Origin: a virus | Direction: 5' to 3' (one strand) | Virus record (IMG/VR): IMGVR_UViG_3300015264_000002 | Location: 1,210 to 65,209 of that record | DNA: 64,000 nucleotides | Shown: positions 6,509-53,412 of the stretch, one piece after another | Layout of the letters: each line of letters opens with the position of its first letter | Position numbering within the stretch: position 1 is the first letter of the stretch | The notes under the pieces: generated by a model | Told to the model about the DNA's origin: nothing | What the model saw: only the letters and a program-made list of their open reading frames with translations | Databases searched by the model: none | Program-made: the position numbers and the translations under genes

Positions 6509-6625
6509 GGGCACAGGAACCTAGGATCTAGGTCGCTAGGCGCTAGCGACCGCGGCAGCATCGACACACGCGACACGACAGCGCCGCTGCATTGGGCAGG
6601 GGCGGAGGAGGAGGAGGCGGGGACC

Positions 6626-8161
6626 ATGGCAATGCAACCGGCGCTGGATCCACAGATCCGCCAGCTACAGGCACTGCTGGCGACGCTGCCGCCCGACGTA
6701 CTGGCCAAGGCCACGTACGGGCTGAGCGGGAGCCCTGTCACGGGGCTGACGTACTACGACCTGGAGGAAGAGGCCAAGGTGTTCGTGCCCGAGATCACGC
6801 CGCTGGTCGGCCTGATCCCGCGCGTCAAGGGCAAGGGCGGCACGGCCACCAACTGGCAGGTGATCACGGCCCTCAATAGCGACCGTCTGCCCATGGGCGT
6901 CGCGGAGGGGGCACGCGGCGGGGTCATGGACATCCAGACCAGCCGGCAAACGGCGCCGTACGCCACCATCGGGATCGAGTCCAGCCTGACGTTCGAGCAG
7001 GACCTGGCCGCGATGGGATTCGAGGACATGAAGGCCCTCTCGACCCGCAACCTGCTGCAGGTCGCGCGGATCGGGGAGGAGGCCCTCGACGTCGGCGGCA
7101 ACCTCGACGTGGTGCTCGGCACCACGCCCACGGTCGCGGGCACGCCCAGCAACACCGGCGGCACGCTGACCAACGCCCACGGCGCCTACCACGTGCGCTG
7201 CGTCGCCCTGACGCTGCAGGCGTGGCGGCGCGCGACCATGGTGAAGGGCGTCCCCGTCCAGCACACCTACACGCTCGGCAACGGGGTGTCGCAGACGGTC
7301 AACGGCGGCGCCGCCAAGGTATCCGCCGATGCCACGGTCACGATCGCGGCCGGCACCACCGGCAGCGCCGACCTGATCGTCACCGCCGTGCCGGGTGCCG
7401 TCGCCTATGCATGGTTCGCCGGCGACAACGCGACCACGACCTGCCTCCTGTTCGCCATCACGACGGTCAACGAGGTGCTGCTGACCGATCCCCCCGGCGC
7501 GATCATCGCCGCGTCCGGCTTCGCCACCGCGGTCGGGACCAACTTCGACACCGACCGGTCGACCAATGACCTGGTCTACAACGGCCTGATCAGCATTATC
7601 AGCAAGGCCGGCAGCGGCAGCTACGTGAAGTCCCTCGACAACACGAAGCTGACGAGCGACGGCGCCGCGGGGTGCGTCGAGGTGAACACGCTGCTGCGCA
7701 CCATGTGGGACACCGTCAAGGTGACGCCGACCATCATGCTCATGAACGCCCAGGAACTGGTCGATCTGAGCGACCTGGTCGTCAAGAACGGCGGCGCCCC
7801 GATCATCCGCATGCAGATGGACGCCAACTCGAGCACGCCCGGCATGGCCACGATCACCGCCGGAACCGTGGTCGGGTTCTACCTCAACAAGACGGCCCAG
7901 GGCGGCGGGCAGATCCTCAAGGTGATCCTGCACCCCGACATTCCGCCCGGCATGATCCTCTTCTACAGCGAGCGGATCAGCTACCCGGTCCCCGGCGTGG
8001 TCAACATCATCCAGGTGAAGACGCAGGAGGAGTGGCGGCAGATCGAGTGGCCGCTGGTGACCCGTGAGCACCAGTACGGCGTCTACGCCCGGCAGGTGCT
8101 GCAGTGCTACTACCCGCCGGCGTTCGCCATGCTCTACAACATCGCCCCGCAGGCATCGTAA
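6626..8161 (+). CDS. Major capsid protein
   Basis: GLTYYDLE..AK...P..TPL...IPRV.G.GG.ATNW..IT motif; very strong RBS GGAGGAGGAGGAGG; position after protease. Confidence 0.85.
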   Translation: MAMQPALDPQIRQLQALLATLPPDVLAKATYGLSGSPVTGLTYYDLEEEAKVFVPEITPLVGLIPRVKGKGGTATNWQVITALNSDRLPMGVAEGARGGVMDIQTSRQTAPYATIGIESSLTFEQDLAAMGFEDMKALSTRNLLQVARIGEEALDVGGNLDVVLGTTPTVAGTPSNTGGTLTNAHGAYHVRCVALTLQAWRRATMVKGVPVQHTYTLGNGVSQTVNGGAAKVSADATVTIAAGTTGSADLIVTAVPGAVAYAWFAGDNATTTCLLFAITTVNEVLLTDPPGAIIAASGFATAVGTNFDTDRSTNDLVYNGLISIISKAGSGSYVKSLDNTKLTSDGAAGCVEVNTLLRTMWDTVKVTPTIMLMNAQELVDLSDLVVKNGGAPIIRMQMDANSSTPGMATITAGTVVGFYLNKTAQGGGQILKVILHPDIPPGMILFYSERISYPVPGVVNIIQVKTQEEWRQIEWPLVTREHQYGVYARQVLQCYYPPAFAMLYNIAPQAS

Positions 8162-45656: not shown

Positions 45657-45861
45657 AGTGGTGCTCAACTGGCACGACGCCACGCGCGACACGCGCCGCA
45701 CCGACACGGGCGACGTCGTCGACAGCCGCGCGCTGTCCCCGAAGGAGCGGCAACAAGAGCTGTTCCGGCAAGGACCCGGCGGCCGCAAGGGCAAGCGCGG
45801 GCAGACGCCGCCAGCCGACGCCGCACCGGCGGCCGCGGGCGACGACCGCCCTGCCACGTGA
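45361..45861 (+). CDS. Conserved phage coiled-coil protein
   Basis: LPVKLT..EL...G.E.REVEC...RTDTG.VV.SR....ERQ..LF; RBS GGAGG. Confidence 0.75.
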   Translation: MATKKDRATEAGPTRPARGAPERIFARETRELPVKLTAAELQARGALIGQKMGILLRIELQAAAAKDHYKAEATRTRKEIEQLGEVLEKGTEVREVECEVVLNWHDATRDTRRTDTGDVVDSRALSPKERQQELFRQGPGGRKGKRGQTPPADAAPAAAGDDRPAT

Positions 45862-45977
45862 TCTTGGGAGCCGATCACGTGGCAGGGCGGGCTGGTAAGG
45901 GCAGTGGGGCCGACGGCGTCTCACCGGGCGCCGGCGGTCCCGAGGCGGGCAGTCCGCGTCAGGGGGCAGTAGAGCAC

Positions 45978-46754
45978 ATGCGCGGGCGTGCGGCTAGCCA
46001 CGGACGTCGGCGGCGGGCGCCGGCGCTACGCGACCGGGTCGTGGCCTTCCGTCGCGTGCGGGCGGCCGACGTCCTGGTCAACCCCGCCAACTACCGGCGG
46101 CACCCGGAGGAGCAGCGGGAGGCGCTGCGCGCGGTGCTGCGCGAGGTGGGGTTTGCGGGTGCCCTGCTGGTGCGCCGCGATCGCCGCGGGCGGCTGGTGC
46201 TGATCGACGGGCAGATGCGCCGCGACGACAACCCCGACGCGCTACTGCCTACGCTGGTCACGGACCTGACGGCGCGCGAGGCGGAGCTGCTGCTGGCAAC
46301 GTACGACCCGCTGGGCGCCATGGCCCGGCGGGACGAGGGGCAGCTGCGGGCGCTGCTGGCCCGGGTGCGGACGGACGAGGCGGCGCTGCGCGTGCTGCTG
46401 GATCGCCTGGCGTCGGGCTCGAGCGCAACGCCGGCGGCTGCGATCCCGGCCGGCCCGTCGCTGGCCGACCGCTTCCTGGTCCCGCCCTTCACCGTGCTGG
46501 ACGCGCGCCAGGGATACTGGCAGGAGCGCAAGCGGCAATGGCTGGCCCTGGGGATCCGGTCGGAGATCGGGCGCGGGGGCGAGGCGGCGTCAGCGTTCAA
46601 GACCGCCGGGGATCAGCCGACGCGGCAGCTGATGCGTGGCCGGGGCGGCAAGCGGGCGGCGTTCCACGGGCCAGGCCGCCGCGATACGATCAGCCAGGAG
46701 ATGGCCAAGCGCGGGGGCCGGCGTGGCGCCGATCAGCCGCTGGTGCCGTCGTGA
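45978..46754 (+). CDS. ParB-like N-domain + N-terminal segment of DNA methyltransferase
   Basis: NP.NYR.HP..Q..AL...L.EVG.....LIDG..R; L.DRF.VPPF.VLDARQGYWQ.RKRQW..LGI.SE.GR. Confidence 0.75.
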   Translation: MRGRAASHGRRRRAPALRDRVVAFRRVRAADVLVNPANYRRHPEEQREALRAVLREVGFAGALLVRRDRRGRLVLIDGQMRRDDNPDALLPTLVTDLTAREAELLLATYDPLGAMARRDEGQLRALLARVRTDEAALRVLLDRLASGSSATPAAAIPAGPSLADRFLVPPFTVLDARQGYWQERKRQWLALGIRSEIGRGGEAASAFKTAGDQPTRQLMRGRGGKRAAFHGPGRRDTISQEMAKRGGRRGADQPLVPS

Positions 46755-46981
46755 CGGTAGCGGGCGCGCAGCGCGGCGATCCCCGCGGTGACCGCCGCCA
46801 GGGGATCGCGGCCAACCTGGGCGTAGAAGCGCGGGTGCACCAGCGCCTCGTGCCCGCGCACGATCGCGTCGCGGTGCGGGCCGAGGCGCGGGAAGCGGGC
46901 GGCCAGGGCGAGCGCCCGCGGCCAGTCGCCGGCGGCCATGTAGGCGTGCAGCTGGTCGATCTTGCGGGGCGGGGTGGCCAT
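46733..46981 (-). CDS. Conserved small phage protein on antisense strand
   Basis: K...L..M..GDW..AL..AA.FPRLG....AI.RGH.A..HP.FY.Q+G.DP.....GI.AL..RY; RBS GGGAG. Confidence 0.7.
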   Translation of the reverse strand: MATPPRKIDQLHAYMAAGDWPRALALAARFPRLGPHRDAIVRGHEALVHPRFYAQVGRDPLAAVTAGIAALRARYRHDGTSG

Positions 46982-47867
46982 GGCTGACAAGCTCCCTACC
47001 AAGTCTCGTGGGCGGGCGTCGAGGGGCAAACAGCGACCGCCCCGCGCGATCAGCGGCGGCGGCTACGGCAAGCGCAGCAGCTTCCTGTTCCGCACCGACG
47101 ACGGCTACGCCGCTGGCGAGGACGCGCAGGTGGCCGGCACCGGTACCAGCATCTTCGACCCGGTCCTGTGCGAGCTCGTCTATCGCTGGTTCTGTCCGCC
47201 CGGGGGCCTGGTACTGGATCCCCTGGCGGGCGGTAGCGTGCGCGGGATCGTCGCGTCGCGCCTGGGCCGCCGGTACGTCGTGATCGAGCTGCGGGCCGAG
47301 CAGGTGCGGGCCAACGACGCACAGGCCAAGGCCATGTGCGGCGCGCCGCTGCCGCGCTGGCAGGTGGGCGACGCGCGCGACTTCCGTGCGGACGGCCCCG
47401 GGGACCTCAGCGCCGTCGCCGCCGACCTGGTGTTTACCTGCCCGCCGTACGCGGACCTGGAGGTGTACAGCGACGACCCGCGCGACCTGTCGACCATGCC
47501 GTACGACGCCTTCCGCGCCGCCTGGGCGGGGATCGTGGCGCAGTCGGTGGCGGCGCTGCGCGCCGATCGCTTCGCTGTCGTCGTCGTGGGCGACGTCCGC
47601 GCGCCGGGCGGCCAGTATCGGGCGTTCCCCTGGCACACCGTGGCGGCATTCGAGGCCGCGGGCGCGGCGCTCTACAACGAGGCGGTGCTGGTCACGGCCG
47701 TGGGGTCGCTGCCCGTGCGCACGGCGAAGCCGTTTGTCGGGAGCCGCAAGCTGGGCAAGACGCACCAGAACTGCCTAGTGTTCATCAAGGGCAGCCCGAC
47801 ACGCGCGACGGAGGCCTGCGGGGCGGTCGACGTGGCCGACGTGCTCGCCGGCGTGGCGTCGCCATGA
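46980..47867 (+). CDS. DNA amino-methyltransferase (N4-C/N6-A) catalytic part
   Basis: TSIFDPVLCEL.YRWF.P, DPLAGGSVRG (motif I), FTCPPY (motif IV), HQN.LVF.KG. Confidence 0.85.
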   Translation: MADKLPTKSRGRASRGKQRPPRAISGGGYGKRSSFLFRTDDGYAAGEDAQVAGTGTSIFDPVLCELVYRWFCPPGGLVLDPLAGGSVRGIVASRLGRRYVVIELRAEQVRANDAQAKAMCGAPLPRWQVGDARDFRADGPGDLSAVAADLVFTCPPYADLEVYSDDPRDLSTMPYDAFRAAWAGIVAQSVAALRADRFAVVVVGDVRAPGGQYRAFPWHTVAAFEAAGAALYNEAVLVTAVGSLPVRTAKPFVGSRKLGKTHQNCLVFIKGSPTRATEACGAVDVADVLAGVASP

Positions 47868-49286
47868 CGTCGACCGATCGCCAGCGCGACGCGCTGGGCG
47901 CGCAGGGCCGTGTGGGGTGTATAGAACCGGAAGGGGAGGGAACGACGCGATGCTGACGACACCAGTGCTGGGTCCGATCACAAGCCATGGGCGCCCGACG
48001 CTCTTGTGGTCCGCCGCCCCGGGGGCGGCCGGCTACCTGATCGAGCGCGCATACGGCTGGGGTCCGTTCAAGGCGATCGCCTACGTGGCGGCGCCGCTGA
48101 CGTCCTACATCGACAACCAGCAGGACGGCAGCAACGGGTTCGTCCGCGTCGGCCACAATCGGTACCGCCTCCGCGCGGTAGCGGCCGACGGCCAGGGCAA
48201 CTCGCCACCGTCAAGCTGGGTGGACGCGGCCTACGGGACGACGACGCCGCTAGCGGCGCGCCGGCTGCTGGCCGCCACCGCCAACCGGCTGGTGATCGTC
48301 GATCCGGAGGCGGGGACTATCCTGGGCGCGACGCCGCCCGATGCGGTGTTCGCGGGCGCGGCGGCGATCGTCGTGGTCGGCACGCGGGCGTACGTGCGGG
48401 CTAACGGGCGCCTCCTGGTCGTCAACGTCACCAACCCGGCTGCACCGGTGCTCACCGCGGTCCTGGTCGATGCGCGCCTGGCCGAGGTGGGGGACGGCCC
48501 GGGCGAGCGCGACGGCGGCCAGTCGCTGCTGGCCTGGTCGCCGTCCCGCCTCCTCGTGTCCTGCTTCCTCGCGGGCACGCTCCTGTCTATCGACGTGAGC
48601 GATCCGACGCGGCCGCGCGTCGCCGGCGAGATCGCGCCCGGCGGCGTGGTCAACTTCGTCTCGGGCCAGCCGCTATGTCTGGCGCGCCTCGATGCGACGC
48701 GCGTGCTGTGGCCGGGGAACGCCAATCCGCACGTACCCGTGGTGGACGTGACGGACCCCGACGCGCCCGCCCTGACGAACGCCTGGGGGTCGTGCGTCCT
48801 GCACATGGGCGAGGGCCCGTGCGCCCTCGTGGTCGACGGGCGACGCGCGATCGTCGCCGTCGACGTCGGCGGCCTCTGCCTCTTCGACCTTGCGGACCCC
48901 GCGCAGCCGGTGTGCGTGGGCGCGTTGCCCGTGCCGGCGATGACCATCACGCCGACGCTTGCGTATGACCCGAGCTACGGCCAGGTGGTGGCCGTCTGCC
49001 CGGGACCGGACGCCGGTGCGGCCGCGCCCGCGCAGCTCGTTCTCCTTGACGTGACGGTGTCGGCTAGCCCGCGGCTCGTCAGGACGGTGCCGCTGGTTGC
49101 GCGCGCCGCCGCGGTCGTCCTCCTCGACCGGCGGGCGGTCGTCCTCGAGGAGGGCGCCGTGGTTGCGTTCGACCTCGACCAGCCCGACCAGCCACCGCGC
49201 ACCGTGGCGGACGCACAGCTGGTCGGCGCCGGCGCGCTGGCCGTGGCGTCGCCGTGATACTGACCGATCGCCAGCGCGACGCCCTG
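47852..49286 (+). repeat. 45-bp imperfect direct repeats (47852-47896 and 49242-49286) flanking one gene
   Basis: 39/45 identical; perfect 21-nt core GACCGATCGCCAGCGCGACGC. Confidence 0.85.
47950..49257 (+). CDS. FnIII-like + LVIVD-type beta-propeller protein
   Basis: L.W.A..GA.GY.IER...SY.D....YR+RAV; repeated LL.VDVSDP..P units; RBS GGGGAGGG. Confidence 0.75.
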   Translation: MLTTPVLGPITSHGRPTLLWSAAPGAAGYLIERAYGWGPFKAIAYVAAPLTSYIDNQQDGSNGFVRVGHNRYRLRAVAADGQGNSPPSSWVDAAYGTTTPLAARRLLAATANRLVIVDPEAGTILGATPPDAVFAGAAAIVVVGTRAYVRANGRLLVVNVTNPAAPVLTAVLVDARLAEVGDGPGERDGGQSLLAWSPSRLLVSCFLAGTLLSIDVSDPTRPRVAGEIAPGGVVNFVSGQPLCLARLDATRVLWPGNANPHVPVVDVTDPDAPALTNAWGSCVLHMGEGPCALVVDGRRAIVAVDVGGLCLFDLADPAQPVCVGALPVPAMTITPTLAYDPSYGQVVAVCPGPDAGAAAPAQLVLLDVTVSASPRLVRTVPLVARAAAVVLLDRRAVVLEEGAVVAFDLDQPDQPPRTVADAQLVGAGALAVASP

Positions 49287-49974: not shown

Positions 49975-50073
49975 CCGCCATGTCGGTGGCCGGCGGGAAG
50001 GTGTAAGTAGGCGCGCAGGTGGCAGGGGCGGCACGTGGGGTGTCGCGGGATGGACGGGGTGGTGGTGGCTGGG

Positions 50074-51093
50074 ATGGAGACGCTGTTTCGACGCCCCGAC
50101 CGGATCGACGCCAAGCTGAACGTCTGCACGGTCCTGTTTAACAGCGTGCGGTACCGGGCGCGGTGGAAGCTGACCGAGGACTTCATCCGGCAGGTCGAGC
50201 GCCACCACAACGCGCGCGTGTGTGTGGCCGAGGTCGCCTTCGGGGAACGGGAGTTCGTGATCGCCAGCGCCACCGACCCGTACCACCTGCGCCTGCGCAC
50301 CTGTCACGAGCTGTTTTTCAAAGAGAACGCCCTCAACCTGCTGTTTGCCCGGGTCATGGCGGCGGACCCCGAGGCGGAGTACTTCGCCTGGGTCGACGCC
50401 GACACGCATCTTGCGCGCTACGATTGGGTGGACGAGGCAATCCACCAGCTGCAGCACCACCCGGTGGTGCAGCTGTGGTCGGAAATGCAGGACCTGACGG
50501 ACGAGCACGAGGTGCTGGCGACCGGACCGAGCTTCGTGCAGACCTGGCAGGAGGGTCGCAAGGGCGAGCCCGGGTGTCACGGGGCGCCGGGCCGTCAACA
50601 CCTGGGGCCGACCGGCCTCGGCTGGGCCGCGATCCGCGCGTGGATCGAGGGCGTTGGTGGCCTGCTCGACGTGTGCGTGGTCGGCTCGTGCGACTGGTGG
50701 ATGGGCTACGCGCTGATCGGCCGGCTCGAGGCCGCGCTCGCCGCGACCGGGAACCACCCCGGGCGCAAGGGGCGCGGTACCTACCACCCGGACTATGTCA
50801 AGGCGATCTGCGAGTGGGAGCGCCGGACGCGGTTGACGCAGTGGAAGGAGCGGCCGCTACAAGGCAACATCGGCCTGGTCAAGGGCCTGGCGCTCCACTA
50901 CTTCCACGGGCCCAAGGCCGACCGGCGCTACCAGGACCGCGAGCAAATTTTCATCCGCCACCAGTTCAACCCGCTGACCGACCTCAAGCGTGACGTCCAG
51001 GGGCTGTGGCAGCTGACGGCCGACAAACCGGAGATGCGCCGCGACCTGCAGCGGTACTATCGGGGACGCAACGAGGACGCGCCGACGCGCTGA
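50074..51093 (+). CDS. GT-A fold glycosyltransferase-like protein
   Basis: V.F.N..RY..R.KL...F...E+AFG...LR.R....F.KEN.+N...AW+DAD...QLWS...G..WA..R.....GGL.D...GS.D..M. Confidence 0.7.
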   Translation: METLFRRPDRIDAKLNVCTVLFNSVRYRARWKLTEDFIRQVERHHNARVCVAEVAFGEREFVIASATDPYHLRLRTCHELFFKENALNLLFARVMAADPEAEYFAWVDADTHLARYDWVDEAIHQLQHHPVVQLWSEMQDLTDEHEVLATGPSFVQTWQEGRKGEPGCHGAPGRQHLGPTGLGWAAIRAWIEGVGGLLDVCVVGSCDWWMGYALIGRLEAALAATGNHPGRKGRGTYHPDYVKAICEWERRTRLTQWKERPLQGNIGLVKGLALHYFHGPKADRRYQDREQIFIRHQFNPLTDLKRDVQGLWQLTADKPEMRRDLQRYYRGRNEDAPTR

Positions 51094-51746
51094 TGGCGGG
51101 CGCACCACGTAGCAGTGCACCACCGCGACGGCGCCGGCGACGTCGTCGGCCGCCACGACAGGCGGCGCCGGCGCAGCGCAATCGGCCCGTGGGCGAGCAC
51201 GCGCGCAAGCTGCAACGCCGCGTGCAGGCGCTCGACCTGTACCTGCACGGCCTGTCGTTCACCGGCGTGCACGACGCCCTGGCGTTGCAGGGCGTGCGCG
51301 TCGATCGCTCGACCGTCGTCCGCGACATTACCGATGCCCTGGGCGAGCTGGCGGAGCTCGACGTGCGCTACCGTGAGCAGGTGCGACAGGAGCTGGTGGA
51401 GAAGGCGCGCCTGCTGTGGAAATGGCTCGAGCCGCGCGCGTCGGTGGGCGATCCGCGGGCGATCCTGGCGGGCGAGCGCGTGCTGGGGCGGCTGCAGAAG
51501 CTGACGGGGGCGTACCCGCCGGGCCTGCCCGACGTGCCGGGGCTCGCGGACGTGGCCGGCCCGGCGCGCGTGGTGTCGGGCGACGTCCTGGTGTACTTCG
51601 AGGCGGACCTGTCGCACTGGCCGACGGCGGCCGCGCAGCAGGTGATCGAGACGACGGCGGTGCCGGCGGCCCCGCGGCCGGCGGCGGGGGGAGGGGGCTA
51701 TGCGGAAGCGGGATCAGGTGCGGCGGGCGCGGCGCAGTCGGCGTAG
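51093..51746 (+). CDS. terS: Terminase small subunit
   Basis: RRVQAL.L...G.S...+...L.....TV..D+..AL...R.EL.....LW......GDPRAI...R+....KL.G; upstream of terL. Confidence 0.7.
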   Translation: MAGAPRSSAPPRRRRRRRRPPRQAAPAQRNRPVGEHARKLQRRVQALDLYLHGLSFTGVHDALALQGVRVDRSTVVRDITDALGELAELDVRYREQVRQELVEKARLLWKWLEPRASVGDPRAILAGERVLGRLQKLTGAYPPGLPDVPGLADVAGPARVVSGDVLVYFEADLSHWPTAAAQQVIETTAVPAAPRPAAGGGGYAEAGSGAAGAAQSA

Positions 51747-51771: not shown

Positions 51772-51915
51772 GTGCGGCTGGTGCTGCCCCGTACCCAGGA
51801 CGCCGACGGCCGGGAGCTGGGGCCGGTGATCGTGGGCGACGGCGCCTGCGTCTACCTGCGCCAGGTGGTGGGGGAGGAGCTGGCCGCGCTGCTGGACGGG
51901 CTGGCCACCGGGTAG
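51772..51915 (+). CDS. Small ORF in same frame as terL, ending at TAG
   Basis: GTG 51772 to TAG 51913-51915. Confidence 0.4.
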   Translation: MRLVLPRTQDADGRELGPVIVGDGACVYLRQVVGEELAALLDGLATG

Positions 51916-51918
51916 CAG

Positions 51919-53412
51919 CTGGCCACCGCCCCGGTCGACGCCGGCGCCGGGCAGCGCGTCGTCCGCTTCCGCTTCCTGCCCAAGCAACGCGAGTTCATTG
52001 AGGACGCGCACGCCGAGCTGCTGTACAGCGGGGCGTTCGGCGCCGGCAAGTCGTACAGCATCTGCGCCAAGGCGATCGCGCTCGCCACCGTCTACCCCGG
52101 CACCACGATTGGCCTGTGCCGCAAGCGCCTGACCCAGCTGCGCAGCACGACCATGCGCACGTTTTTCGAGGAGGTGTGTCAGCCCGAGCTGATCCGGTGG
52201 TACCGCAAGAGCGAGCGCGTCGTCGCCCTCAAGTCCGGCCCGGCGCTGCGCCCCGGCGGCTGCGCGTGCCAGTCGCGGCTCGGCTGTCGCGCCTGCACGG
52301 CCTACGTGTTCTTTTTCGGCCTGACCAACGACCGCGGCCACTCGTTCAATATCCGCAGCCTCAACCTGGGCGCGTGCGGCGTGGACGAGGCAATCGAGCT
52401 GACGGAGAACGAGTGGCTGGAGATCCAGGGGCGGCTGCGGGAGCGGCACTGCGCGCTGCACCAGGTGTTTGGCGCGACCAACCCGGGCAGCCGCGGGCAC
52501 TGGCTGTACCAGCGCATGTGGATCAACGCCGACCCGCAGGTGCAGCATGTCGTGCAGACCTCCACGCTCGACAATCCGCACCTGCCGCCCAGCTACGTCG
52601 CGCTGATCAGCCGGTACAAGGGCCGGTATTACGAGCGGTACGTGCAGGGCAAGTGGGTCGGCTTCGACGGCCTCGTGTACGACGTGTACGACCCGCTGGT
52701 GCACGAGCTCACGTGGGAGCAGTTCGCAGCCCGCAAGGGCTGGGGCAACGGCTACCAGACGACCCCGGGCGTCTATGCGATCCCGCCCAAGTGGACGCGC
52801 CTCGGCGGCTGCGACTTCGGCTTTACCAACCCCTTCGTGTTCCAGTGGTGGGCCGAGTCGCCCGACGCGGAGTACTTCATGTACCGCGAGATTTACCACA
52901 CGCGGCGGCTGGTCGAAGATCACGCGCGCGACATTGTCCGGCTGTCGCGGGGCGAGCCGGCGCGGCTGAACAGCTGGGCGGATCACGATGCCGAGGACGC
53001 CGCGACGTTGCGCCGCTACGGCGTCAACACCATGCCCGCCAACAAGGACGTGGCCAACGGGATACAGACGGTCTACAACCTGCTGCGGCCCGACGACGCG
53101 ACCGGCCGCCCGCGCGCGTACTTCCTGCGCGACGCCCTGGTGGAGGAGGACCCGGCGCTGGCGGGCGACCAGGAGCGCCGGCACCCGGTACGCACCACGG
53201 AGGAGTACCAGGTGTACAAGTACCTGCCGGGGACGGAGACGCGCAGCGCGAAGGAGGAGCCGGCCAAGGTCGACGACCACGGCTGCGACACCACCCGGTA
53301 CGTGCTACACAGCCACCTGGTCGGCGGCGCTAACGCGGGGCTGCTGCGGTACATGGAGGCGGAGGCCAAGAAGCGGCTGGCCGAGCGCGCGCGGGCGCAG
53401 CGTGGCTACTGA
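51919..53412 (+). CDS. terL: Terminase large subunit (PBSX/Terminase_3-like); non-canonical start
   Basis: FLPKQ.EF, Walker A GAFGAGKS, GVDEA Walker B, GATNP, G.W.GF.G.VY, GCDFGF.NP, DH.CD.TRY; no ATG/GTG/TTG in frame between 51916 and Walker A. Confidence 0.9.
   Translation: MATAPVDAGAGQRVVRFRFLPKQREFIEDAHAELLYSGAFGAGKSYSICAKAIALATVYPGTTIGLCRKRLTQLRSTTMRTFFEEVCQPELIRWYRKSERVVALKSGPALRPGGCACQSRLGCRACTAYVFFFGLTNDRGHSFNIRSLNLGACGVDEAIELTENEWLEIQGRLRERHCALHQVFGATNPGSRGHWLYQRMWINADPQVQHVVQTSTLDNPHLPPSYVALISRYKGRYYERYVQGKWVGFDGLVYDVYDPLVHELTWEQFAARKGWGNGYQTTPGVYAIPPKWTRLGGCDFGFTNPFVFQWWAESPDAEYFMYREIYHTRRLVEDHARDIVRLSRGEPARLNSWADHDAEDAATLRRYGVNTMPANKDVANGIQTVYNLLRPDDATGRPRAYFLRDALVEEDPALAGDQERRHPVRTTEEYQVYKYLPGTETRSAKEEPAKVDDHGCDTTRYVLHSHLVGGANAGLLRYMEAEAKKRLAERARAQRGY

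Follow-up and report, generated by a model that had tools for sequence, protein, structure and literature searches.

A 64,000-nucleotide stretch of viral DNA (hereafter the window; positions 1210-65209 of the 65,643-bp IMG/VR record IMGVR_UViG_3300015264_000002) carries, just before its terminase genes, a gene that we assign with high confidence to a soluble glycosyltransferase (GT) of the GT-A class with conserved catalytic motifs. The protein belongs to a new, unnamed family inside a well-known enzyme class. Its fold and chemistry are ordinary; the interest lies in how large the unannotated family is, in its repeated occurrence near the terminase and in the question of its acceptor. Our best explanation as a whole, in which this enzyme would glycosylate a virus-made protein, is tentative, and we give it less than even weight.

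The gene itself is real. Its frame is open from 50035 to 51093 on the plus strand, and the GC contents of the open reading frame (ORF) at the three codon positions, 0.70/0.44/0.91, are the signature of true genes in this genome. Translation from the ATG at 50074, exactly where several homologues begin, gives 339 aa; the public gene call P0001 uses an alternative start at ATG 50050 and gives 347 aa. A promoter and terminator scan around the gene found none.

No Pfam (E<=0.1), PHROG, NCBIfam or PADLOC model matches the protein, a sequence search of the PDB returned chance matches only, and scanning the phage genome in all six frames with PF00535 gave nothing at E<=0.1. The fold was assigned by structure prediction. 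An AlphaFold2 (AF2) model built from a 34-sequence alignment has a mean predicted local distance difference test score (pLDDT) of 89.1 and a predicted TM-score (pTM) of 0.90. In a Foldseek search of the PDB, this model had at least 306 matches at E<=1e-3, and all of the top matches listed are GT-A glycosyltransferases, including heparosan synthase 2, GalNAc-T1/T2, the chlorovirus hyaluronan synthase, K4 chondroitin polymerase, WrtF, beta4Gal-T and SpsA. VIA-align gave Z-scores from 13.3 to 10 for about 40 entries, with 170-230 residues aligned, and 96 chains at Z>=8. Heparosan synthase, CesA, WrtF, SpsA, beta4GalT7, TarP, TarS and DPMS are among its matches, and most entries are GT-A enzymes, with a few nucleotidyltransferases of the same fold class near Z 10. 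Because this ranking is flat, no solved family stands out as the nearest, and the solved enzymes share 8-17% identity with the protein at TM-scores of 0.31-0.45. The predicted fold, a single Rossmann-like alpha/beta/alpha domain with the GT-A strand order, is nevertheless solid. It bears out the initial annotation of the window, which had proposed a GT-A family from motifs alone, and the DxD motif is in place. That annotation had also considered that the best homologues might be ordinary bacterial GT2 enzymes; they are not, being unnamed 'hypothetical proteins'.

Most of the motif series on which the initial annotation relied is present as well, and forms the conserved core of a true family: the protein contains FNSVRYRARWKLTEDF, EVAFG, LRLRT..KENALN, AWVDAD, QLWS and GSCDWWM, whereas the 'G.AWA' of the family consensus reads GLGWAA here. 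These motifs are not chance, since the same positions are invariant columns across 34 homologues (37-54% identity to the query). That alignment has 29 invariant columns, which include N23, R26, E53, K83-E84, D108, D110, H128, Q133, G181 and W184-A185, and further along D199, G204, D207, W248, H275, H278-G279, Y286, R289, Y328, R332 and E334. D108-A-D110 falls between model strands E103-107 and E111-113. Invariant motifs specific to the family (HYWHG, RxY and LRDDxRxYFxxRNED) are found in the C-terminal 120 residues, and the H275/H278 pair within the first of these possibly binds metal or diphosphate. The protein has no hydrophobic segment, with a maximum of 1.46 in a Kyte-Doolittle 19-residue window, and its isoelectric point (pI) of 7.7 equals the family median.

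The chemistry is suggested by a comparison with ceramide glucosyltransferase, to which the family profile aligns weakly (E 0.009). In this alignment, GSxD207WxMA falls on IAED236YFMA and R251 on the first residue of the RxxRW motif. The Asp of 'AED' (D236) is the catalytic base in GT2/GT21 enzymes, and D207 may, if weakly, correspond to the catalytic-base Asp of the GT-A class. Of the QxxRW motif of processive GT2 synthases, W248-Q-x-R251 is present and the RW part is absent, and there is no membrane segment. The alignment with ceramide glucosyltransferase suggests an inverting, metal-dependent mechanism. We can thus offer a rough proposal for how the enzyme would work. A soluble, cytoplasmic GT-A glycosyltransferase of about 39 kDa would draw a nucleotide-sugar donor, most likely from the host pool; D108 and D110 would bind a divalent metal that holds the donor diphosphate, and D207 would serve as the general base activating the acceptor hydroxyl, with inversion as in GT2/GT21-type enzymes. 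Since the gene sits at the junction of DNA-metabolism and terminase genes, the enzyme would probably be made late, together with the packaging proteins.

The family is large, and neither Pfam nor PHROG has a model for it. An exhaustive HMMER search against 1.84 billion cluster representatives retrieved 3040, 1614 and 292 of them at E<=1e-3, 1e-10 and 1e-30, respectively. In a word-indexed search, none of 120 listed homologues had a functional name, being 'hypothetical protein' or mostly nameless, and just two of the 120 had a precomputed, weak PF00535 match. Some members are longer than the window protein. Six (P0124, P0125, P0129, P0142, P0241 and P0242) carry two or three GT domains in tandem on one polypeptide, which suggests multi-step glycan building in some viruses. 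In P0186 (694 aa), an intein with a LAGLIDADG domain is placed exactly at the DxD motif, and P0266 (694 aa) has an insertion of about 335 aa, close to the catalytic-base motif, that matches nothing in Pfam or the PDB. The extra regions of P0241 and P0266 have no sequence match in the PDB. A dedicated search for longer (fusion) proteins of the family came back empty, the long forms being tandem copies or inteins. One candidate, P0153, in which a beta-propeller precedes the GT, was rejected as a propeller-GT link because it has no similarity to the LVIVD-repeat propeller protein of the window and its first GT strand is missing; the call looks chimeric or partial.

As judged from the sequences retrieved, the family resides mainly in tailed phages and prophages, and has also passed into giant viruses and bacterial chromosomes. 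At least 270 loci in IMG/VR carry it, and the nearest relatives of the window copy are phage-size contigs there (41-49% identity). The best 80 of these loci lie mostly on phage-size contigs, some of up to 0.5 Mb, and two of the 80 on giant-virus metagenome-assembled genomes (MAGs). The T4-type major capsid gene gp23 (PF07068, 1e-141) is within 6 kb of the GT gene in 13 of the 80 and a prohead protease in seven; in those phages the GT gene occupies the variable region just beside the structural operon's end. A tblastn search of 50,697 deposited phage genomes found a single homologue, XaC1_205 (38% identity) of Xanthomonas phage XaC1 (349 kb). In the nearest ESM-Atlas clusters, 74-95% of the members are viral, most often from Uroviricota. 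In bacteria, 121 loci carry the family, counted in one-genome-per-species collections, mainly in Acidobacteriota, Acetobacteraceae and Planctomycetota.

The initial annotation had called the gene a giant-virus type, from a family abundant in Mimiviridae-like viruses, and one could imagine that the phage acquired it from such a virus. Giant-virus members do exist: Yasminevirus A0A5K0U7Q5 is the second-best match in BFVD (E 3.6e-29, TM 0.82, 26% identity), and the two MAG contigs mentioned above rank within the best 80 loci. However, the only other strong match in BFVD is one unnamed entry, and the 270 or more viral and 121 bacterial loci, together with the dominance of Uroviricota in the nearest Atlas clusters, show a family that is not centred on giant viruses. 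In a maximum-likelihood tree of 139 copies (FastTree, midpoint-rooted, without clade tests), the copies from giant viruses cluster in a single small clade, nested within viral contigs, and the bacterial copies split into several separate clades. The window copy is found among phage-size contigs (L003-L007, L026), beside a Rhodopila clade and sister to alphaproteobacterial copies. The tree and the distribution of carriers thus make the family phage-centred and leave the giant-virus label unsupported as stated; neither the closest relatives nor most members are in giant viruses. The present, unrooted picture speaks against a Mimiviridae-type origin, which we regard as very improbable.

Around the relatives, neighbouring genes were called by a simple ORF and GC3 (GC content at third codon positions) heuristic, with which small genes may be missed. 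When ten other window proteins were compared by tblastn with 80 related viral loci, with the GT as a positive control, no relatives were found, and clustering of the neighbours revealed no universal partner gene; the GT gene moves as a single unit. What recurs is a site directly upstream of packaging genes, with at least four different families of the large terminase subunit (TerL). In the window the order is GT, a putative small terminase subunit gene (terS) and TerL (phrog_2). Locus L043 has GT, terS (phrog_51, 7.6e-29) and TerL (phrog_979, 3e-166) and, 3.7 kb upstream, a methylase-like gene; L026 has TerL (phrog_38) three genes downstream of GT; L044 has GT, TerL and portal, and L017 a TerL fragment followed by the portal. 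Among 95 large ORFs within 3.5 kb of GT at 57 non-redundant viral loci, the PHROGs most often matched were those of TerL (phrog_38 six times, phrog_2 five times, phrog_979 four times), followed by portal proteins, DNA polymerase and head proteins. As one TerL can match several PHROG families, we estimate that TerL is nearby in no fewer than 8, and probably in about 12, of the 57 loci; iterative counting with hidden Markov models (HMMs) worked for TerL of the phrog_2 type alone. Other relatives adjoin DNA polymerase (L010) or primase/helicase (L007) genes. The family is a single-gene cargo, mainly of tailed phages, that has landed repeatedly between DNA-metabolism and terminase genes.

In about 30 genomes of Acidobacteriaceae, Sulfotelmatobacter and Acidoferrum, the GT gene is part of a prophage-like element (L126, L130-L162; for example L137:826-16940) with the order giant protein, lipoprotein, GT, TerL (phrog_2, 2.7e-28), HipA-like, DUF3037 and portal (PF04860, 1.5e-50). 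The giant protein has 1300-2100 aa, further genes follow the portal, and very short branches separate the GT copies of this group; the element may represent a temperate phage lineage of very wide distribution, or it may be domesticated. A reading of the gene upstream of GT in these loci as terS or ParB-like was rejected, since its product is a lipoprotein that has both a signal peptide and a lipobox. Between TerL and portal, the genes for a HipA-like kinase and DUF3037 (L137:10725-11525, L121:11695-12504) match PDC-M66 A (6e-07) and B (1e-08), and look like defence cargo within the packaging operon, PDC-M66 being itself a candidate defence system. Two viral loci have further neighbours of note. 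At L009:8865-10787, 1.9 kb downstream of GT, a 641-aa protein joins an HNH endonuclease region to a thymidylate-synthase-like domain (phrog_85, 1.4e-48); of the neighbours seen, it alone could produce a modified pyrimidine. At L029:6969-7673, in a 254-kb T4-like contig group, a GT2 gene (PF00535) overlaps the GT stop codon, and a papain-like protease gene is nearby.

Other bacterial copies have quite different surroundings. In Bryobacter (L083-L094, L099) the order is isocitrate dehydrogenase, GT and histidine kinase, and in Rhodopila and other Alphaproteobacteria (L105-L136) GT follows gamma-glutamyltranspeptidase, near P450, CinA and an NtrB/NtrC-like pair. These surroundings are housekeeping ones, conserved across species and without virion genes nearby, and the copies look like fixed, domesticated chromosomal genes.

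What the enzyme glycosylates is the harder question, and the initial annotation had suggested DNA, virion proteins or the host surface. The acceptor that we prefer is a virus-made protein, so that the enzyme would decorate the virion as in mycobacteriophages, chloroviruses and mimiviruses, but we hold this choice weakly; in our ranking a host glycoconjugate comes next, followed by DNA and other targets. In favour of a virus-made acceptor are the packaging- and capsid-proximal positions of the gene, the tandem GT forms, the overlap with a GT2 gene in L029 and the giant-virus members, which fit because giant viruses glycosylate their own particles. Several findings weigh against it. Neither the major capsid protein nor the probable tail proteins of the window have a Ser/Thr-rich terminal extension, and the tblastn search of the 50,697 phage records showed no homology between this family and the known mycobacteriophage virion glycosyltransferases. 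The single Bryobacter and Rhodopila copies among housekeeping genes, with no virion genes nearby, argue for an acceptor that ordinary cells possess. Cargo and DNA-modification genes in general also tend to gather near the terminase, so the acceptor cannot be read from position alone. Finally, the choice between a retaining and an inverting mechanism comes from the one weak profile alignment described above, the family has no studied member, and the only cultured carrier found is the XaC1 jumbo phage, in which XaC1_205 is surrounded by hypothetical genes.

Those housekeeping copies would be explained more readily if the acceptor were a host glycoconjugate. The enzyme could, like TarP, add sugars to a cytoplasmic precursor of an envelope polymer or lipid and so alter the cell surface, for instance for superinfection exclusion or receptor masking; we think this unlikely. 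The structural matches include TarP, TarS and the Listeria rhamnosyltransferase RmlT (Z 11.2-12.0), the tandem multi-domain forms resemble glycan polymerases, the fixed chromosomal copies imply an acceptor in uninfected cells, and the position directly after a lipoprotein gene in the roughly 30 acidobacterial loci is typical of conversion-type cargo. However, the GT lacks a membrane segment, neither a flippase nor a GtrA/GtrC-type partner accompanies it, and no sugar-nucleotide synthesis genes were seen among the scanned neighbours. Moreover, the hosts of T4-like phages and of the giant viruses of protists, which all carry the family, have no envelope polymer in common, and yet the C-terminal acceptor-side residues are invariant across all of these viruses. 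The one substrate that phages, giant viruses and bacteria do have in common is DNA, and the enzyme could put sugars on phage DNA ahead of its packaging, marking it against restriction and working in the same part of the genome as the ParB-methylase module. The GT gene lies between that module (ParB/N6_N4 methylase) and the terminase, an arrangement that L043 repeats (methylase, then GT-terS-TerL); relatives are found beside DNA polymerase (L010), primase/helicase (L007) and the HNH plus thymidylate-synthase-like gene (L009), and DNA methyltransferase families are among the neighbours. Inteins favour DNA-metabolism genes, and one is inserted at the DxD of P0186. Phage DNA glycosyltransferases have been found beside ParB-like proteins, methyltransferases and terminase, and the arrangement in the window resembles such published DNA-glycosylation clusters (bioRxiv 10.1101/2023.12.21.572611; PMC13229309). 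The complete genome speaks against this reading, since Tet_JBP (PF12851), thymidylate-synthase-like (PF00303) and TAGT (PF20691) genes are all absent from it even at permissive thresholds, PF20691 matching neither in the protein scan nor in a six-frame genome scan at E<=1. With the search for an acceptor base covering two base-hydroxymethylating families, Tet_JBP and thymidylate synthase, it follows that no known acceptor base can be made. Nor is the GT detectably related to TAGT/JGT beyond the fold class, or to the GT-B enzymes of T4; its pI is near neutral, and both the chromosomal copies in housekeeping contexts and the tandem multi-domain forms speak against a DNA substrate. We consider DNA glycosylation improbable.

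We rate no higher the idea that the target is a conserved host protein or small molecule, such as a transcription factor, a translation factor or a signal made from a nucleotide, modified for take-over or counter-defence. It would suit a gene that moves by itself between viruses and bacteria of very different kinds, has no conserved partners and is found in chromosomal copies in housekeeping contexts, and the invariant acceptor-side Arg, His and Tyr residues (R284, Y286, R289, R322, Y328, R332) could fit a conserved, possibly anionic acceptor. However, it has no direct support, the protein is not in PADLOC, and the tandem multi-domain forms fit glycan building better. A still longer shot is that this viral glycosyltransferase is linked to packaging and acts on a target of a novel type, either phage DNA, by chemistry in which a hydroxymethylated base is not required, or a component of the packaging machinery or head. 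If true, it would account for the independent arrival of the gene in front of four or more unrelated terminase families and for its presence in phages as well as giant viruses.

The window, to judge from its genes, derives from a tailed phage. The source record has direct terminal repeats and an IMG/VR completeness estimate of 100%. The GC content of the phage is 73%, and that of 2-kb blocks of the window is 0.67-0.78, mostly >0.70. Its genes include those for a head maturation protease, major capsid protein, head-tail adaptor, tail proteins, ParB-like and SbcCD-like proteins and the large terminase. The nearest relatives of the capsid protein are in Brevundimonas phages (40% identity) and then in Arthrobacter phages (about 28%). 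The features discussed here are collected in Table 1.

Table 1. Positions in the window of the glycosyltransferase gene, its predicted functional sites and the other genes discussed.
Feature	Position	Strand	Basis or remark
Glycosyltransferase (GT) gene, 339 aa	50074..51093	+	ORF, coding statistics, AF2 model
DxD motif codons (D108-A-D110)	50395..50403	+	Invariant; predicted metal and nucleoside diphosphate (NDP)-sugar diphosphate site
D207 codon, motif GSxDWxMA	50692..50694	+	Invariant; predicted catalytic base
H275-x-x-H278 codons (HYFHG)	50896..50907	+	Invariant His pair
TGATG overlap of the GT stop codon with a next-frame ATG	51091..51095	+	Sequence; ATG probably not the true start
Putative small terminase subunit (terS)	51189..51746	+	185 aa from GTG 51189, or 217 aa from ATG 51093
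Large terminase subunit (TerL)	51916..53412	+	phrog_2 at 4.9e-24; Terminase_3
ParB-fold / N6_N4 DNA methyltransferase module, two genes	45858..47867	+	PF01555, phrog_498, phrog_12517, phrog_15396
LVIVD-repeat beta-propeller gene	47917..49257	+	PF08309 at 3.9e-07; GC3 0.90
Major capsid protein	6509-8158		

The immediate surroundings differ in part from what the initial annotation had described. It had placed the GT gene next to a DNA methylase, and a methylase module is indeed present in the region but is not adjacent: about 2.2 kb lie between them, filled by the LVIVD propeller gene and small ORFs. On the downstream side, the TGATG by which the gene was said to be coupled to terS exists, but the start of the next gene more likely lies 96 nt later. 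The first 32 codons after ATG 51093 have a GC3 of 0.59 and a GC content at second codon positions (GC2) of 0.88, as against a GC3 of 0.92 in the remaining ORF, and the public call P0267 (185 aa) starts at GTG 51189; because of this low GC3 and the public start, translational coupling through TGATG appears doubtful. The 96 nt after the GT stop (51093-51188) would encode MAGAPRSSAPPRRRRRRRRPP..., a poly-Arg sequence with CGA/CGT codons. They may be non-coding, possibly with packaging or regulatory signals before terS, or may encode an unusual Arg-rich N-terminus. The terS label itself comes from the position directly before TerL and from weak helix-turn-helix (HTH)-type matches only, and no homologues of the protein were detected beyond its own cluster, P0267. 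The start of TerL is unusual as well. Its Walker A motif (GAFGAGKS, about 52030-52055) is upstream of the first ATG/GTG/TTG (52153), so TerL would begin at CTG 51919, or the TAG at 51913-51915 that closes its frame would be read through, or there is a sequencing error. The ORF that precedes this TAG in the same frame has a GC3 of 0.93 and a possible GTG start at 51772.

Viral glycosyltransferases govern the escape of DNA from restriction, the immune recognition of virions and changes in the surface of lysogens. Members of the present family span soil, freshwater and marine viromes, with thousands of clusters at 50% identity, so that once an acceptor is defined, thousands of 'hypothetical' virus genes could be annotated at once. 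It would also show whether terminase-proximal glycosyltransferases without a base-hydroxylating partner act on DNA or on proteins. XaC1_205 of the cultured phage XaC1 offers an experimental entry point.

Among known systems, the inverting GT-A enzymes of the GT2/GT21 type (SpsA, ceramide glucosyltransferase and the heparosan and chondroitin synthase domains) share with the window protein the GT-A fold (Z 12-13), a DxD after the fourth strand and, in the weak alignment of D207 with D236, an Asp at the position of the catalytic base. The window protein differs from them in that it reaches no Pfam model, has no membrane domain and lacks the RW of QxxRW; at 8-17% identity and TM-scores of 0.31-0.45 the distance is large, and its C-terminal 120 residues carry motifs of their own. 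TarP, the wall-teichoic-acid GlcNAc transferase of Staphylococcus aureus prophages (PDB 6h1j), is likewise a soluble GT-A enzyme (Z 12.0 over 184 residues, root-mean-square deviation 3.3). The two are only 9% identical, however, TarP contains a trimerisation domain and acts on a defined acceptor, polyribitol-phosphate, and the family described here spans hosts without teichoic acids.

The TAGT/JGT enzymes (PF20691) resemble the window protein in their GT-A class fold, in their site before the terminase and in the presence of a ParB-fold protein in the same genome region; upstream of the terminase, a ParB-like protein is often their partner (bioRxiv 10.1101/2023.12.21.572611; PMC13229309). In contrast, the window protein does not match PF20691, its phage genome contains no Tet_JBP or thymidylate synthase gene, and the ParB domain belongs to the upstream methylase and is uncoupled from the GT gene. 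The remaining comparison is with enzymes that glycosylate virions, namely the glycosyltransferases of mycobacteriophages Che8 and Corndog, described as such by Freeman et al. (2023, PMC10527164), and those acting on the capsids or fibrils of chloroviruses and mimiviruses. Although the window protein has no sequence relationship to the actinobacteriophage enzymes, and the capsid and tail proteins of its phage have no Ser/Thr-rich tails, it shares with this group a virus-encoded, soluble, cytoplasmic GT-A enzyme whose genes lie near or within late or structural modules, in a family that giant viruses carry as well.

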